Below are positions 2,096-31,261 of a stretch of DNA of 31,413 bases, in pieces (position 1 is the first letter of the stretch; the number at the start of each line of letters is the position of its first letter). The notes beneath the pieces were generated by a model, which worked only from the letters and a program-made list of their open reading frames with translations, searched no databases and had not been told where the DNA came from. This DNA comes from Erysipelotrichaceae bacterium (GTDB taxonomy: Bacteria > Bacillota_I > Bacilli_A > Erysipelotrichales > Erysipelotrichaceae). The stretch is from assembly GCA_030604855.1 (NCBI GenBank), contig JAUVVC010000012.1:1-31413 (forward strand), in the 5' to 3' direction. The position numbers and the translations under genes are program-made.

Positions 2096-3514
2096 TTAAG
2101 CGATGTTCAAGAATGCATGCAACAGTGTTTCAAAACGCTGTTGTTTTTTTGTGTAATATTCCACAGCTTTAGCTTGTGGTTCAAGATGCGATTCCGATTG
2201 AGATTTCTCATCTGTAAACATATCACTTATTCCAAGCGCTGCTCGTGCCACATGATAGGCACCCTTTAAAGCCGCATTTGCTCCATCATCCACAAACACG
2301 TTCGTCCCAAAGACATTGGCTAAGAGCTGAACCCAAGCTTCAATCTTACTCAAGCCACCACTGACATACAAGGGTTCATTCCCTGCATCAAAACTGTTGG
2401 CGATTGCTTTTAGATTCATCGTAATCCCCTCGATGACTGCGACCAATTGATCATCTGGTGTGGTGAGATGGGTCAATCCCCACATCATTCCTTTCGCATC
2501 ATTGGACCACAGTGGTGCGCGTTCCGCAAACAAGTACGGTAAGAAGATCAAATCATTTTGTGTTGTTTGTTTTAAGAGTGATTCAAGCTTGGCATAGGGT
2601 TTATCTGTTTTAAGTGCGTATTGCTTCATTGCCCATTCGATGACATTCCCCCCATTGTTGGTAGGTCCACCCACGATCCAATGATCTTCACTAAAGGCAT
2701 AGCAGAAATGATTTGCTTTAGGATTCAAGATCGGTGATTTACTGAAACGACGAATCGCACCAGACGTGCCTACGGTCAACGTTCGAGCTTGATTATTTTG
2801 AGTCGTACCTAAACTTGATAAAGGTCCATCGCTTGCGCCGACAACGACCGTCAACTGCCGACTAAACAACGGTGAATCGATTTCGAAATGATGCGTGATC
2901 GGCACGGGGTTGGATAGTTGTGATATTTGAATGCCTAAGGCATCGATTAAGGGTTCGTGCCATGCATGGCTGTGGATGTTCAATAAACCACTGGATGCGG
3001 CAATGGACACATCGATGATGCGTTGATTGAACCAGCGCAACAAGAGATATTCCTTGAACGAAAGTAAACGATCATTGGTCTGTAGTTTACCTTCTGATTT
3101 CAACCATAGGATACGAGGAATCCAGGACATGGTATGTAAAGGTGTTCCTGTTTGCTGGAAGATTTGCATCTGTTCATAAGTAATACGAAAAGCTTCCACA
3201 TGATCTTTGGCTTGTTGGTCTGAAAAAATCAAGCATTCGCTGACCGTACGATCGTGCGCATCCAATACCATGAAGGTATGCATGGCAGAGCCTAATGATA
3301 AAATAACTTCATCATTGGGCACACGATTCAACATTTCTTGAATCAAATCAAAACACGACGCCAATACCGTATCGGGATGAAATGATATTTCTCCCTGAAT
3401 CGTTTCCTTTAGTTGGACTGGACGCGATGAAACATGCATCAGATGCCCTTCTAAATCATATAAACCTGCTTTAAGATTGCTTGTGCCAATATCGATGGAA
3501 ATTATTGTTTTCAT
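2096..3514 (-). CDS. gntK: FGGY-family gluconokinase
   Basis: Start moved to MKTIISIDIGTSNLK (ATG 3514), the normal FGGY N-terminus. Motifs GASDGPLSSLG, GTSGAIR, GGPTNNGG and ERAPLW match Bacillus-type GntK as I recall it. Confidence 0.8.
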   Translation of the reverse strand: MKTIISIDIGTSNLKAGLYDLEGHLMHVSSRPVQLKETIQGEISFHPDTVLASCFDLIQEMLNRVPNDEVILSLGSAMHTFMVLDAHDRTVSECLIFSDQQAKDHVEAFRITYEQMQIFQQTGTPLHTMSWIPRILWLKSEGKLQTNDRLLSFKEYLLLRWFNQRIIDVSIAASSGLLNIHSHAWHEPLIDALGIQISQLSNPVPITHHFEIDSPLFSRQLTVVVGASDGPLSSLGTTQNNQARTLTVGTSGAIRRFSKSPILNPKANHFCYAFSEDHWIVGGPTNNGGNVIEWAMKQYALKTDKPYAKLESLLKQTTQNDLIFLPYLFAERAPLWSNDAKGMMWGLTHLTTPDDQLVAVIEGITMNLKAIANSFDAGNEPLYVSGGLSKIEAWVQLLANVFGTNVFVDDGANAALKGAYHVARAALGISDMFTDEKSQSESHLEPQAKAVEYYTKKQQRFETLLHAFLNIA

Positions 3515-3649: not shown

Positions 3650-4309
3650 TCACTTCATCATCGGTGCGATGATTTTCATCGCTTCACTAAAATCTGAAAC
3701 AGTATGAAATATCTTTAGTCCGCTTTGATCGATTAAATTACGATCCGGAACATAAACAACGTCCAAATCCGCTTGATTACATGCAACAATTCCATGATAA
3801 GAGTCTTCAAATACAAGTATTTTTTCTTTATTTATACCTGACAATGTAGTGGCTTCTAAATACAAAGCTGGATCGGGCTTCGTCTTTTTAACTTGATCAC
3901 CATAAAGAACGAACTGAAAGCGATCAATAAGATTAAAATGTTCTAAAATTCGTTTTGCCTTAACTTTGAATGTCGATGTGACACAGGCATAAGGAATTCC
4001 TTTGTGATCCAAATCATCTAAGATCTCAAGAGCATAAGGTTTCAATTGAACTTCACCCAGTGCAAGTTTCTCCCAAAACAATCGGTCACGAATATCCCTT
4101 AGCGACATCGCAAAATCAAAATTATGGGTATGTTCGTTGATGATATCCACGATTTCCAGGTAACTACGCCCACGCCAACTGTTTATTTCTTCGAGTCCAA
4201 TTGGAATCTGATATTGATCGAAAACCTGCTTCCAAAGTTGAACATAGAGATATTCACTATCAACCAAACATCCATCCATATCAAAGAAAACCATCTCAAT
4301 ATTTTTCAT
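3650..4309 (-). CDS. HAD-superfamily sugar-phosphate phosphatase / beta-phosphoglucomutase-like hydrolase
   Basis: FFDMDGCLVDSE (HAD motif I, DxD) near the N-terminus, with a later ...FEDS... motif. 219 aa. Confidence 0.85.
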   Translation of the reverse strand: MKNIEMVFFDMDGCLVDSEYLYVQLWKQVFDQYQIPIGLEEINSWRGRSYLEIVDIINEHTHNFDFAMSLRDIRDRLFWEKLALGEVQLKPYALEILDDLDHKGIPYACVTSTFKVKAKRILEHFNLIDRFQFVLYGDQVKKTKPDPALYLEATTLSGINKEKILVFEDSYHGIVACNQADLDVVYVPDRNLIDQSGLKIFHTVSDFSEAMKIIAPMMK

Positions 4310-28302: not shown

Positions 28303-28327
28303 AAAAAAACGTCCCATTGGAACGTTT
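28303..28327 (-). terminator. Rho-independent terminator of the PF04392-type ABC operon
   Basis: Minus strand: AAACGUUCC, loop AAU, GGGACGUUU (9 bp, one GU), running into a U7 tract (plus-strand A-run 28303-28309). It overlaps the stop codon. Confidence 0.7.
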
Positions 28328-29120
28328 AACCTAAAATCAAAGAATCATTCAATTCATTCATGAGATTCAAGGCATTGAACTTCGCAATCAAATCCATGAC
28401 ACTCAATTTATGTTTTTCTTCACCACTTAAATCCAAGACGATCTGTCCTTTATGAAACATGATCAAACGATCCCCGACATCTAAGGCCTGTTTCAAGTTG
28501 TGTGTGACCATGACCGTTGTGATCTCCTTCTCACGTACCAAGCGTTGCGTCAAGTCAATGATCAATTCCGATGTCTTGGGATCCAAAGCAGCGGTATGTT
28601 CATCCAGCAACAACAACTCAGGTTGAACCAGGGTAGCCATCAAGAGGCTCAAAGCCTGGCGTTGACCCCCGGACAAGGTTCCGACACGATTGTTTAGTTT
28701 TTCTTCCAAGCCGAGATTCAGGGCTTTAAGCTCTTGTTTGAAGTGTTCAATCAAAGCTTGGTCCACACCACGCGATAAATTGAACTTTTTCCCCTTGTTA
28801 TAAGCCATGGAAAGATTCTCAAGAATCGTCAACGAAGGTGCCGTACCCTTTAAAGGATCTTGGTAGACACGAGCGATGTGTCGCGACCGAAGATGTTCCG
28901 GCTGATGAGCGATGTCATGACCCTTGAAGAGGATGGAACCCTGATCTGGCTGAAGTGTCCCCGCAATGATGTTGAAGAAGGTAGACTTGCCACTGCCATT
29001 TGAACCAATGACCGTAATGAACTCCCCATCTTTGATGTGAATATTCAGATCCTGGTAAAGTTGATTCTCATGGGGTGTTCCGACATAGAAACGCTTTTCA
29101 ATGTTTGAGAGTCTAAGCAT
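28326..29120 (-). CDS. ABC transporter ATP-binding protein (KEGG-style putative tryptophan/tyrosine transport system ATPase)
   Basis: GSNGSGKST Walker A, LSGGQRQ signature, LLLDEHTAALD Walker B. 8-nt overlap with the permease gene. Confidence 0.9.
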   Translation of the reverse strand: MLRLSNIEKRFYVGTPHENQLYQDLNIHIKDGEFITVIGSNGSGKSTFFNIIAGTLQPDQGSILFKGHDIAHQPEHLRSRHIARVYQDPLKGTAPSLTILENLSMAYNKGKKFNLSRGVDQALIEHFKQELKALNLGLEEKLNNRVGTLSGGQRQALSLLMATLVQPELLLLDEHTAALDPKTSELIIDLTQRLVREKEITTVMVTHNLKQALDVGDRLIMFHKGQIVLDLSGEEKHKLSVMDLIAKFNALNLMNELNDSLILG

Positions 29121-30039
29121 GTTTGTCCCTTCCTTTCAGTAACTTAGGTCTAAGCTCTTTATTATTCAAAACCAAAGCCAAGACGAAGATAATAGCCGTA
29201 ATCAGTTTTAGATTACTTGGTGGAAGCTTAAGCGCCAAAGCCACTGAGATGCTTAAGCGATACAGAATCGATCCCAACACAACCAATGTCGTGATTTTCC
29301 ATGACTTCATAAACCCCAATACGCTGGTTCCCAAGACCACCGAAGCCAAACCAACAACGACGATGCCACTGCCCAATGAGATGTCATAGAAACGAAACAT
29401 CTGCATGGCAATCGCTCCGGAAAAGGCTGCGATGCCATTGGACAACATTAGACCCAGAATCTTTGTTTTCCCAATATCTTCACCCAAAGCGATGACTAAT
29501 TGCGGGTTATCCCCAGTGATTCTAAGCAAGAATCCAAGCTTGGTTTCCAAGAACCAATCCATCACCAACTTTAGGACAATGATCACCAACAACAACACAA
29601 TACTCGGATAGAAACGGATCACCCAAACTTGTAGATCTTGAGGTAGATTTTCAACCCAGGACCCCACCGTAAACATCGTTTTGACATTGAAGATGGGGAG
29701 ATTGGATCGGTTGTTCGCAATCATGAGATTGATGGAGTACAGTCCTGTCATGACCAAGATGCCACTGAGTAGATTGGAGATTTTGAGTTTGACATGAAGG
29801 AAACCCGTTAACAAACCCGCACCCAAACCACCGATAAAAGAAAGAAACAAGGCCAAGGGAATATTGCCCCACTTTAACAAAACCACAGCTGCAATAACCG
29901 ATCCCAAGGGGAAACTCCCATCCACCGAGAGATCCGGGAAATCCAAGATTTTATAGGTCAAGGTCACCGCAATGGCTAAGACACCATACGCCAAACCTTG
30001 ATTCAACACCTCAATACCAAAGGACAACATATCAATCAA
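29113..30039 (-). CDS. ABC transporter permease (BPD_transp_2 / branched-chain type)
   Basis: 308 aa polytopic protein with N-terminus ...LNQGLAYGVLAIAVTLTYKILDFPDLSVDGSFPLG. Overlaps both neighbouring genes. Confidence 0.9.
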   Translation of the reverse strand: MIDMLSFGIEVLNQGLAYGVLAIAVTLTYKILDFPDLSVDGSFPLGSVIAAVVLLKWGNIPLALFLSFIGGLGAGLLTGFLHVKLKISNLLSGILVMTGLYSINLMIANNRSNLPIFNVKTMFTVGSWVENLPQDLQVWVIRFYPSIVLLLVIIVLKLVMDWFLETKLGFLLRITGDNPQLVIALGEDIGKTKILGLMLSNGIAAFSGAIAMQMFRFYDISLGSGIVVVGLASVVLGTSVLGFMKSWKITTLVVLGSILYRLSISVALALKLPPSNLKLITAIIFVLALVLNNKELRPKLLKGRDKHA

Positions 30040-31009
30040 TCAATGTCGCACGCGCCTTCAAGGCGTCCGAAATGGTGATATTCAAAGTGTTGGCGATCGT
30101 TTGATTGATGATCAATGAAGTATCGGTTGCGGTACTGACTTTTAAGTCTTTAGGTGAAACACCTTCAAAGAGAATCTTGGCAACCAAGCTTGCGGCTTGA
30201 CTTCCCAATTTCAAGTAACTCAAACCCTCTACCGCAAGCAAACCTTGATCCATCGCACCTTCCTCAGCCGCAAAGACAGGTATGCCGACTTGAGCCGCTT
30301 TGTCGGTCACGATCGCCGTATTGGATACCACAAGATTGTCGGTGATGTTATAGAATGCATCGACTTCACCCGCGATCTGTTGAGCGGCACTTGCCATCTC
30401 AGAAGCCGTGGTGATACCGGTCGCAACCACTTCCAAACCAAATTGAGGTGCCAAAGCTTTTACTTGTTCAACTTGAATCAAACCATTGACTTCACCTAAG
30501 TTGTATAACATCCCAATCTTCTTCGCTTCTGGCATCAAATCTTTAATCAATTGAAGTTGAAGATCTAAAGGTGCCGCATCGGATACACCGGTGACATTGC
30601 CCCCTGGTGCCTCATTGGATTCTACGATCCCCGCCGCAACCGCATCGGTTACCGCATTAAAGACGACCGGAATATCACTCCCTTGCGTCGCATTGAACGC
30701 CGCCTGCGCAGCCGGTGTTGCAATCGCATAGATCAGATCTACTTTATCGCTTACGAACTTCTTAGCAATCAAATCTGCTGTAGGCGCATCCCCATTCGCA
30801 TTTTCAATCACAATCTCAAATTTACCCGTATGCCCCATGGCTTCAAGTTCAGCAACCATGCCTTCAATCGTCGCATCCAGAGCTGGGTGTGTAACCAATA
30901 AAAGGACACCAATCACTTTCACATCATCTCCATCTGTCTTAGGCTCAGCCGACGTACATCCAACCATCCATAACAACAATACCAATGCCAGTGTGATTAT
31001 CTTTTTCAT
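30032..31009 (-). CDS. ABC substrate-binding lipoprotein, PF04392 (ABC_sub_bind) type
   Basis: Lipobox MVGC. ...VIGVLLLVTHPALDATIEGM... is typical of this family. GGAGG SD at 31020-31016. Confidence 0.85.
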   Translation of the reverse strand: MKKIITLALVLLLWMVGCTSAEPKTDGDDVKVIGVLLLVTHPALDATIEGMVAELEAMGHTGKFEIVIENANGDAPTADLIAKKFVSDKVDLIYAIATPAAQAAFNATQGSDIPVVFNAVTDAVAAGIVESNEAPGGNVTGVSDAAPLDLQLQLIKDLMPEAKKIGMLYNLGEVNGLIQVEQVKALAPQFGLEVVATGITTASEMASAAQQIAGEVDAFYNITDNLVVSNTAIVTDKAAQVGIPVFAAEEGAMDQGLLAVEGLSYLKLGSQAASLVAKILFEGVSPKDLKVSTATDTSLIINQTIANTLNITISDALKARATLID

Positions 31010-31029
31010 AAGTTCCCTCCCCTCAACAA

Positions 31030-31056
31030 TAAAAAAGCCGCGAATCTATGCGGCTT
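31030..31056 (-). terminator. Leader terminator directly upstream of the SBP gene SD
   Basis: Minus strand: AAGCCGC (31056-31050), 8-nt loop, GCGGCUU (31041-31035), running into U6 (31036-31031). It sits 10 nt upstream of GGAGG. Confidence 0.7.
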
Positions 31057-31139
31057 GTTGAGGAAGATGAATTTGGACCAGCATAGATTTATTTTTAACC
31101 AAGTAAAACAGGTTAATATCTATACCGATATCAACCGAG

Positions 31140-31226
31140 CTACCTAAAATAAAAATAAACGTAATATGCTTGATGCTGAATCTGTAATGTTTGTGTCGTT
31201 CTCATAATCAGCACCCGGCCTTTCAT
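31140..31226 (-). CDS. Candidate leaderless leader peptide MKGRVLIMRTTQTLQIQHQAYYVYFYFR (28 codons)
   Basis: Translated by hand and too short for the ORF track. The ATG at 31226 lies 6 nt after the -10 hexamer, with no SD. The Tyr/Phe run is encoded at 31166-31146. The TAG stop (31142-31140) is 3 nt before the first helix. Confidence 0.4.
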   Translation of the reverse strand: MKGRVLIMRTTQTLQIQHQAYYVYFYFR

Positions 31227-31232
31227 GAAATA

Positions 31233-31261
31233 AATCTAACACAGCACAATGTAACTTTCAA
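31233..31261 (-). promoter_or_regulatory. Promoter of the ABC-importer leader
   Basis: Minus strand: TTGAAA (31261-31256), 17-nt spacer ending in TGt, TAGATT (31238-31233). Confidence 0.5.

Follow-up and report, generated by a model that had tools for sequence, protein, structure and literature searches.

In the stretch of Erysipelotrichaceae DNA analysed here (contig JAUVVC010000012.1 of assembly GCA_030604855.1; 31,413 nucleotides, referred to herein as the window), a three-gene ATP-binding cassette (ABC) importer operon is preceded by a leader with a short open reading frame (ORF) and a chain of competing helices, and it is this leader that we describe; all support for what follows is comparative. 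All coordinates of the window are given for the minus strand. By Pfam assignment, the regulated operon (28326-31009) comprises the genes for a PF04392 substrate-binding lipoprotein (SBP; 31009-30032), a BPD_transp_2 permease (30039-29113) and an ABC ATPase (29120-28326). The genomes nearest to the window were Erysipelotrichaceae metagenome-assembled genomes, with an SBP identity of 91%. The SBP scored 243 bits against the NCBIfam TrpX model, under its 390-bit equivalog cutoff, and its closest solved structure was C. difficile CD0873 (6HNI; E = 8e-70), a tyrosine binder in whose family a pocket Glu and a pocket Tyr set the preference for Tyr, Phe or Trp (PMC6816091). Since the closest solved SBP binds tyrosine and both selectivity residues are retained in the window SBP, in AAEEG and LSYLKLG, the importer would be expected to carry tyrosine, alone or together with phenylalanine, and the target of the leader is probably an aromatic-amino-acid ABC importer that prefers tyrosine.

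Upstream of the operon, a promoter scan and a coordinate check placed a sigma-70-type promoter at 31233-31261, composed of the -35 hexamer TTGAAA (31261-31256), a 17-nt spacer and the extended -10 element TGtTAGATT (31241-31233), with transcription predicted to start at ~31226. The same arrangement was seen in several relatives, which carry L numbers herein (L001-L003, L010 and L013). This is the promoter that a first-pass annotation of the window had described, and the other sequence features listed there were likewise found at their coordinates on the minus strand. The annotation was not upheld in the start of translation, which it had assigned to an ATG at 31226 (31224-31226) as a leaderless start opening a 28-codon ORF, MKGRVLIMRTTQTLQIQHQAYYVYFYFR (31226-31140). 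This ATG does lack a Shine-Dalgarno (SD) sequence and is in frame with the leader ORF described below, but it is kept only in the window, L004, L013/L101 and L100 and is missing in L001-L003 (AAG plus a 1-nt insertion), L010, L015, L020, L102 and L104. The relatives all keep a second ATG with an (A/G)GGUG or GGAG SD, and the leaderless start was rejected on these grounds of conservation. In the window this SD is GGGUG (31212-31216), 6 nt 5' of the in-frame ATG at 31205, and its pairing with the anti-SD CACCUCCU amounts to -7.9 kcal/mol. Of 19 leaders examined, 18 have an equivalent SD ahead of the ORF (-6.1 to -9.7 kcal/mol), the exception being L024, where the anti-SD pairing at the first ATG is -3.0 kcal/mol. 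By this comparison, the conserved leader start appears to be ATG 31205, not 31226. A hairpin, H0 (31172-31215), in which GGUGCUGA (31215-31208) pairs with UCAGCAUC (31179-31172), encloses the leader SD and start codon along with the nine codons at the 5' end of the ORF. RNAalifold returned 8 pairs for H0 on 11 leaders; the hairpin is conserved, with mostly one-sided GC/GU changes and weak covariation, and it may serve in timing or limiting leader translation. Its 3' arm coincides with conserved Gln-His codons.

The leader ORF that begins at ATG 31205 has 21 codons plus a stop (31140-31205) and encodes the peptide MRTTQTLQIQHQAYYVYFYFR. Its stop codon, TAG (31142-31140), is followed by 3 nt and then by the first of the helix-forming segments. 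Near its 3' end lies the presumptive regulatory run TAT TAC GTT TAT TTT TAT TTT (Y Y V Y F Y F; 31146-31166), and the earlier count of six aromatic codons among the final eight sense codons, 31166-31146, was borne out. Leaders were gathered 5' of SBP homologues from genomes, metagenomes and assemblies, and the set bearing the element comprised 13 distinct Erysipelotrichales leaders, window included, with SBP identities of 55-92%; the relatives are drawn mostly from one order plus a few outliers and are phylogenetically clustered, and the counts given herein are of sequences and not of independent events. An ORF of 20-22 codons was present at the same place in 13/13 of these leaders, starting at the equivalent of ATG 31205. 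The N-terminal residues of the peptides vary, no frameshifts were seen, and the other two frames are stopped in nearly every leader. The peptides of the relatives are MKTTKTLKIQHQAYYFYFYFR (L001), METTKTLTIQYQAYYFYFYFR (L002), METTKTLLIQHQAYYFYFYFR (L003), MQSTKTLLIQHQAAYYYFYYS (L010), MKTSMNQQIKHQANYYYFYFS (L004), MKSMNIDQIQHQVNYYYFYYS (L102), MNHELITTLHQVNYFFFYFS (L104), MKDQNKMLIQHSTQYYFYFS (L013), MKDQNELLIQHSTQYYFYFS (L101), MKDQKDMLIQHSTRYYFYFS (L020), MTCIKSQIINQHVVSYFYFYFS (L015) and MNNAKLKLNQHAASYFYFYFS (L100), with runs of 5-7 Tyr/Phe codons. Across 12 leaders every C residue within the run falls at codon position 3 (10/10), and the only changes within the runs are TAT/TAC, TTT/TTC or an exchange of Tyr and Phe, with the exception of the one GTT (Val) in the window. 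This pattern of substitution indicates that the codon run is under codon-level selection. It had been cautioned that a T-rich tract would yield hydrophobic codons in any frame; since the C residues of the run are all in third positions, this concern has been answered.

The same layout was found in a more distant leader, L024, with a five-Phe run (ending ELSFFFFFT before the stop), and in the Peptacetobacter leaders L029 and L107, with five-Tyr runs (MKTRLYYYYYNLYI and MKSLSLTNIKTYYYYYSLFI, respectively). In all 16 leaders (the 13 from Erysipelotrichales together with L024, L029 and L107) the stop codon and segment 1 are 1-4 nt apart. A covariance model built from the Erysipelotrichales leaders only, R1, found L024 (37.8 bits, E = 2e-4), and a search with it did not match the Peptacetobacter leaders or those from Enterococcus and Streptococcus described below. 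These gave no significant R1 match, and their kinship with the window leader rests on layout and short sequence blocks. Homologues of the [Clostridium] innocuum type (L016-L019; SBP identity 55%) have a short leader with no ORF and no terminator, and the element is therefore not universal in Erysipelotrichales.

Downstream of the stop codon, the leader can form a series of alternative helices. Helix pairs were counted on a 12-leader MAFFT alignment, RNAalifold was run on separate sub-regions so that each alternative helix could form, and an alignment-free test compared the duplex energies of cognate segments with those of pairs from different leaders over 20000 permutations. The 228-nt leader as a whole folds at -70.6 kcal/mol against a shuffle mean of -45.6 kcal/mol (z = -6.15; 0/200 shuffles as good). 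Segment 1, GGUUGAUAUC (31127-31136), begins 3 nt past the stop and pairs with segment 2, GAUAUUAACC (31120-31111), over 10 bp with one G-U. This 1:2 hairpin had been proposed in the first-pass annotation and also appears in the terminator scan. It was paired in 120/120 cells (100%, 12 leaders) versus 30-46% with a slid partner; its covariation was 0.205 versus 0.170 in shuffles, a value reached by 43/500 shuffles, with 1 two-sided pair. When the Peptacetobacter leaders were included, RNAalifold returned 10 bp for helix 1:2, of which 3 pairs had two-sided changes. Segment 2 is also the upper 5' arm of a second hairpin, P1 (segments 2:3; 31077-31129), a putative anti-antiterminator that is present in the minimum free energy (MFE) folds. 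Its 5' arm runs from 31129 to 31111, its loop from 31110 to 31101 and its 3' arm from 31100 to 31077, and the 2:3 pairing suggested earlier was thereby upheld over this span. RNAalifold found 11 pairs in P1, 4 of them with two-sided changes. For P1 and the terminator taken together, 86.7% of cells were paired (30-46% in the slid control), 7 pairs were two-sided, and covariation was 0.208 against 0.153 in shuffles, with 1/500 reaching it. The 10-nt loop of P1 (31101-31110; UGUUUUACUU) has the consensus UnUUUnACwU, flanked by CC/GG.

Segment 3 can in turn pair with the terminator. The predicted antiterminator (31043-31089) joins the segment 3 core AAUCUAUGC (31089-31081), extended by GG at 31079-31078, to the 5' arm and loop of the terminator, CCGCAUAGAUU (31053-31043). 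The perfect 9-nt complementarity noted previously, between AAUCUAUGC and GCAUAGAUU (31051-31043), was recovered. Pairing was found in 86.5% of cells versus at most 58% in the slid control, 5/9 pairs were two-sided, and covariation was 0.397 compared with 0.234 in shuffles, none of which reached it (0/500). On 11 leaders RNAalifold gave 8 bp with 3 two-sided pairs for the antiterminator, and its duplexes (-8 to -19 kcal/mol) are comparable with the terminator stems. The intrinsic terminator itself (31029-31056), located by the terminator scan, has the form AAGCCGC-AUAGAUUC-GCGGCUU followed by a U run, with its stem at 31056-31035; 98.8% of its cells were paired, with 3 two-sided pairs. In the alignment-free test, the cognate mean energy was reached by 9/20000 re-pairings for 1:2, 1/20000 for 2:3, and 0/20000 for both the pairing of segment 3 with the terminator 5' arm and the terminator. 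Together, the alignments indicate that the four mutually exclusive helices are conserved; P1, the antiterminator and the terminator show clear compensatory change, helix 1:2 a marginal one. Among the relatives, the ORF, its frame, the aromatic codons, the stop position and the four helices are all conserved, which bears out the conservation that the first-pass annotation had put up for testing.

An additional outer helix encloses the terminator, formed by CUUCCUCAACAA (31066-31055) and UUGUUGAGGGG (31029-31019) and spanning 31019-31066. In the duplex test its cognate mean was -7.5 kcal/mol versus -5.0 kcal/mol for non-cognate pairs (0/20000 permutations), and it covaries between CAACAA/UUGUUG and CAACGA/UCGUUG. 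This complementarity had been noted before as abutting the SD of the SBP gene. The pairing proved to be conserved, but sequestration of the SD did not, as the helix overlaps the 5' part of the SBP SD in the window and reaches it only in the clade of the window and L010. Since the overlap is confined to one clade, general translational control by the outer helix is doubtful on these comparisons.

These observations are best accounted for, in our view, by ribosome-mediated transcription attenuation through a leader peptide, in which the supply of charged tRNA-Tyr and tRNA-Phe would be sensed and the aromatic-amino-acid ABC importer controlled accordingly, a reading to which we assign a probability of roughly three in four. 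We infer translation of the ORF, stalling, condition-dependent folds, their kinetics and the response to Tyr/Phe. Transcription would begin at ~31226, and a ribosome would load at GGGUG and ATG 31205 and translate the 21-codon leader. A ribosome with a stop codon in its A site should protect ~12-13 nt downstream. When Tyr and Phe are plentiful, the ribosome would reach the stop codon at 31142-31140 and mask segment 1 over 7-8 of its 10 nt, segment 2 would be left free for segment 3, P1 and then the terminator would form, and transcription would stop before the SBP gene (OFF). When charged tRNA-Tyr or tRNA-Phe is scarce, the ribosome would stall within 31166-31146, at least 12 nt 5' of segment 1, with its footprint ending at or before the first base of that segment. 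Free segment 1 would then capture segment 2 as it emerges, segment 3 would be left unpaired, and before the 3' arm of the terminator is made it would pair with the terminator 5' arm and loop, giving readthrough (ON). The design would thus consist of five segments and four helices, the classic scheme shifted by one register, and its distinctive prediction is that an untranslated leader reads through and is not super-attenuated. Apart from the start codon, the ON/OFF logic of the first-pass annotation fits the conserved geometry, in which the stop is always 1-4 nt before segment 1.

Several points weigh against this reading. Masking the first 13 nt after the stop leaves the terminator in the MFE fold of every leader, and the unmasked MFE fold of the window has P1 and not 1:2; with the terminator persisting in the MFE fold whether masked or not, the switch must be kinetic. 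Changes in helix 1:2 are mostly one-sided within the Erysipelotrichales set, and 43/500 shuffles equal its covariation. The logic predicts readthrough for a wholly untranslated leader and would need leader translation to stay efficient, and yet H0 sequesters the leader SD. The P1 loop (CCUnUUUnACwUGG) is conserved beyond the need of a passive spacer, leaving room for a bound factor or ligand. The relatives, coming mostly from one order with a few outliers, are non-independent sequences, and translation, stalling and the amino-acid response are predicted from comparison.

Among alternatives, the one that survives best is a divergent riboswitch of the trpB motif, in which P1 would bind a small molecule linked to aromatic-amino-acid metabolism, be stabilised by it and so withhold the antiterminator, leading to termination, while the ORF would be incidental or modulatory. 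The trpB motif (RF04312), designated SRC-39-1, belongs to the orphan "strong riboswitch candidates" of Narunsky et al. (2024, PMC11109978) and has >900 representatives in Firmicutes and Fusobacteria, mostly 5' of an uncharacterised ABC transporter. Its published form is a hairpin that holds an antiterminator in the right shoulder and precedes a terminator (PMC11109978). The leader agrees with this published description: it has P1 with the antiterminator in the 3' shoulder and then an intrinsic terminator, it stems from a Firmicute and precedes an ABC transporter of the amino-acid type, the most frequent setting of the motif, and it shares the lower stem A-Y-AGAU / AUCU-R-U. Rfam gave no match in the whole window at gathering thresholds, and thus no T-box or riboswitch model, and at E <= 10 returned for the leader only a sub-threshold trpB motif over 31126-31026 and noise. 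That alignment (33.9 bits against a cutoff of 59; E = 0.0049 in a 464-nt search) places hairpin 2:3 on the P1 of the motif and the terminator on its terminator, and sub-threshold matches recur over P1 and the terminator in independent leaders (L104, 40.5 bits; L029, 37.3; L010, 29.1; L004, 28.4), with a P1 loop that is fairly conserved within the clade. All of these scores, 28-40 bits, are nevertheless well under 59 bits, and a generic terminator supplies a large share of them. The consensus nucleotides of the upper P1 and loop (GAC ... G..U..UC) fall on mismatches or gaps when the leaders of the window, L010, L004 and L104 are aligned to the model, and a single hairpin with variable internal loops would make a poor aptamer. 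The match covers hairpin 2:3 and the terminator, whereas the model has neither an ORF nor a segment 1, and the riboswitch leaves unexplained the ORF, the third-position-only C changes, the distance from stop to segment 1 and helix 1:2. A bona fide trpB motif (>= 59 bits) was found in none of 9 genome, 20 metagenome, 10 further and 4 plasmid-collection loci, and the discoverers of the motif could not themselves exclude a protein factor or a classic attenuator (PMC11109978). We therefore regard the riboswitch as unlikely. The architecture is the same, membership in RF04312 is not established, and the resemblance may be homologous or convergent.

We consider it less probable still that the leader peptide acts as a nascent-peptide sensor of the TnaC type, with ...YFYF(R/S)-stop, perhaps together with Q-H, arresting the ribosome near the stop when free Tyr/Phe is abundant. 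The arrested ribosome would mask segment 1 and so promote P1 and the terminator, and the signal would be the free amino acid and not tRNA charging. Such a programmed arrest would supply the dwell at the stop codon that the OFF state needs while ~45 nt are transcribed, and the last sense codon (Arg/Ser), the stop position and the upstream Gln-His are conserved at the peptide level in Erysipelotrichales. The Gln-His codons, however, double as the 3' arm of H0, which explains their conservation at the nucleotide level, and distant versions of the peptide differ completely outside the run (FFFFFT, YYYYYNLYI and YYYYYSLFI, each before the stop), while runs of identical regulatory codons are the hallmark of tRNA-charging sensing.

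Leaders bound by TRAP carry ~9-11 (G/U)AG triplets spaced 2-3 nt. The weakest alternative, that a protein or tRNA binds P1 or its loop in the manner of TRAP, PyrR or a T-box and that the short ORF is a U-rich by-product, is very improbable. In its favour, homologous transporters do use T-boxes and TRAP-like repeats, and the P1 loop is conserved. Against it, the leader has no T-box (RF00230) match at E <= 10 and no T-box core sequence, where homologous loci searched in the same way yield T-boxes of 98-141 bits, 31232-31010 holds 7 scattered (G/U)AG triplets with no three in a row at 2-3-nt spacing, and the ORF, with its conserved frame and SD and the third-position pattern of its run, is no by-product.

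Leader-peptide attenuation is a textbook mechanism, known almost entirely from the biosynthetic operons of Proteobacteria and Actinobacteria. Like trpL, pheL/pheA and hisL of E. coli (Rfam Trp_leader, Phe_leader and His_leader), the window leader contains a short ORF that has its own SD and in which codons of the regulated amino acid are clustered, as in the Phe codon runs of pheL (PMC3082878), followed by overlapping alternative hairpins and an intrinsic terminator, the fold being chosen by the position of the ribosome. It differs from the E. coli type in its host, a low-GC Firmicute, in its target, an uptake ABC transporter and not a biosynthetic operon, and in its regulatory codons, a mixture of Tyr and Phe. 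The classic attenuator has four segments and three helices, whereas five segments and four helices are found here; the codon run lies 5' of segment 1 and not inside it; it is the terminating ribosome that would mask and not the stalled one; and an untranslated leader is predicted to read through, where the classic one super-attenuates. There is no sequence similarity to the E. coli leaders, and no Rfam leader family matched in the window.

The earlier statement that leader-peptide attenuation does not belong to low-GC Gram-positives is outdated. Predictions of His-leader attenuators cover the B. cereus group, Peptostreptococcaceae and Erysipelotrichales (PMC9413887; PMC2965389), among them those of Bacillus hisS/hisZ (PMC2965389), and work on S. 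aureus ilv-leu has dealt with a Leu-rich attenuator peptide (PMC5794164). These share with the window leader the phylum (for the predictions of PMC9413887, the order) and the use of a leader peptide with antiterminator and terminator in place of a T-box, whereas the window leader differs in its amino acids, Tyr/Phe, in its genes and in its unrelated sequence.

Homologous transporters in other loci are preceded by other sensors. Reading the specifiers of T-boxes from the cmscan alignments, we found Tyr (UAC) in L025, L030, L039, L041 and L070, Phe (UUC) in L051, L054, L084 and L088, and Trp (UGG) in L008, L061 and L073. Since the specifiers differ among loci, the transporter family as a whole appears to serve all three aromatic amino acids. 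S. suis TrpX has been shown experimentally to be a component of Trp uptake under a Trp T-box (PMC9382623). TRAP-like (G/U)AG repeats were present in L005, L031, L033 and L110. In these SBP homologues of Clostridium and Peptoclostridium, clusters with 2-3-nt spacing run into the SD and start codon (GGAGGATGGTAGTATG), at L005:~2770-3000, 5' of position 1001 in L031/L033, and at L110:2370-2500 and 3650-3780; by their spacing they look like TRAP-binding sites. T-box or TRAP control of transporters of the TrpXYZ type, such as S. suis TrpX (PMC9382623), resembles the attenuator proposed for the window in the transporter family and in the signal, since limitation for aromatic amino acids turns on uptake by antitermination, and differs in the sensor, which in the window would be a translating ribosome and not uncharged tRNA or TRAP.

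Aromatic leader ORFs were also found 5' of transporters in more distant hosts. In E. gallinarum (L112, NZ_CP116511.1) and S. suis (L111, NZ_CP135066.1), SD-led leader ORFs encode MKLLLSPQLNIAYFSYFR, ending AYFSYFR before the stop, and MLQMCQNHSANHTYFYGYFR, ending YFYGYFR, and the 3' end of each ORF doubles as the 5' arm of the hairpin that comes first. These leaders match the Enterococcus family sRNA_2410 (RF02863; cutoff 61 bits), at L112:2132-2360 with 89.5 bits and at L111:2215-2475 with a sub-threshold 36.2 bits, and the match sits directly 5' of the PF04392 SBP-permease-ATPase operon, its 5' end being the 3' end of the Tyr/Phe-rich ORF. The likeness to the window group extends to short blocks: the E. 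gallinarum ORF ends UAU UUU AGA UAG where the window has UAU UUU AGG UAG, and the pairing partners ...UAUCUAUAAUGGCU / AGCCAUGUAGA are nearly the same as the segment 3 and terminator partners of L004 and L102. The Lactobacillales versions differ in that the end of the ORF is itself the 5' arm of P1, two extra hairpins are enclosed by P1, and one more stands ahead of the terminator; moreover, RF02863 is described as an sRNA and not as an attenuator, and its model does not match the window, whether the gathering threshold or E <= 10 is applied. By its layout, the RF02863 "sRNA" resembles what an aromatic leader-peptide attenuator would leave as its terminated leader. In E. faecium (strain Aus0004), sRNA_2410 is a Northern-validated transcript of ~195 nt (PMC5593968), as expected of a prematurely terminated leader.

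In Ilyobacter polytropus, a leader ORF (MMAKFTWWWQNK...) contains three consecutive Trp codons and is followed by tandem terminators, and we regard it, from its sequence, as a candidate Trp leader-peptide attenuator of Fusobacteria. It lies on pILYOP01 (NC_014633.1) at L109:1123-1212, where the SD-preceded ORF MMAKFTWWWQNKIDQYNKSQVNQVLSKSA is followed by two terminator-like hairpins, and precedes an operon of tandem SBP, permease and ATPase genes of the same transporter family. In Peptacetobacter (L029:884-1888; L107:1-2163), the SBP gene with the Tyr5 leader has no permease or ATPase genes after it, and a dUTPase gene on the opposite strand comes next; in L107 this SBP gene stands just after another SBP gene. 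From this arrangement, the Peptacetobacter SBP may be a binding protein of orphan or accessory character that has an attenuator to itself. In the C. difficile and C. argentinense homologues (L105 and L108), the SBP gene is the last of its operon and the leader lies outside the DNA compared. No relatives were found in an SBP alignment search of viral contigs, and a scan of the rest of the 31-kb window found no second leader-like mini-ORF with an aromatic run. The importer operon of the window is followed on the same strand by genes for a 4HBT thioesterase (28256-27786) and an inosine-uridine nucleoside hydrolase (27789-26854), and then by an ORF (26841-25513) encoding an ABC ATPase fused to an FtsX-like permease domain. 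L010 has no thioesterase gene at this place, and its ATPase gene is directly followed by that for the nucleoside hydrolase.

Within the literature library covered by full-text search, we found no description of a Tyr/Phe-codon leader peptide in Firmicutes, of such a leader on an importer of the TrpXYZ/CD0873 type, of an extra helix with inverted masking logic, or of a link between an attenuator and RF02863 or, possibly, RF04312. We entertain tentatively, at short of even odds, that the window leader is one branch of a widespread and unrecognised family of aromatic-codon attenuators on TrpXYZ/CD0873-type importers in Firmicutes and Fusobacteria, in which swaps of the codon run retune specificity and of which RF02863 and possibly RF04312 are fragments. 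If this were true, the run would combine Tyr with Phe codons in Erysipelotrichales and Lactobacillales and would consist of Tyr5 in Peptacetobacter, of Phe5 in L024 and of Trp3 in Ilyobacter, RF02863 would be no trans-acting sRNA, and RF04312 would possibly be no ligand-binding RNA. This would offer a testable explanation for the Rfam "sRNA" RF02863, and a starting point for RF04312, one of the ten "strong riboswitch candidates" left as orphans by Narunsky et al. (2024). In the gut Firmicutes themselves, the attenuator would place an uptake system under the control of Tyr/Phe codons, with an extra "anti-anti-antiterminator" helix that inverts which state of the ribosome does the masking. One transporter family that carries T-boxes, TRAP-like sites or Tyr, Phe or Trp leader peptides would represent a natural swapping of sensors on one expression platform. 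The regulated SBP also has homologues that matter in host colonisation, namely CD0873 of C. difficile and TrpX of S. suis.

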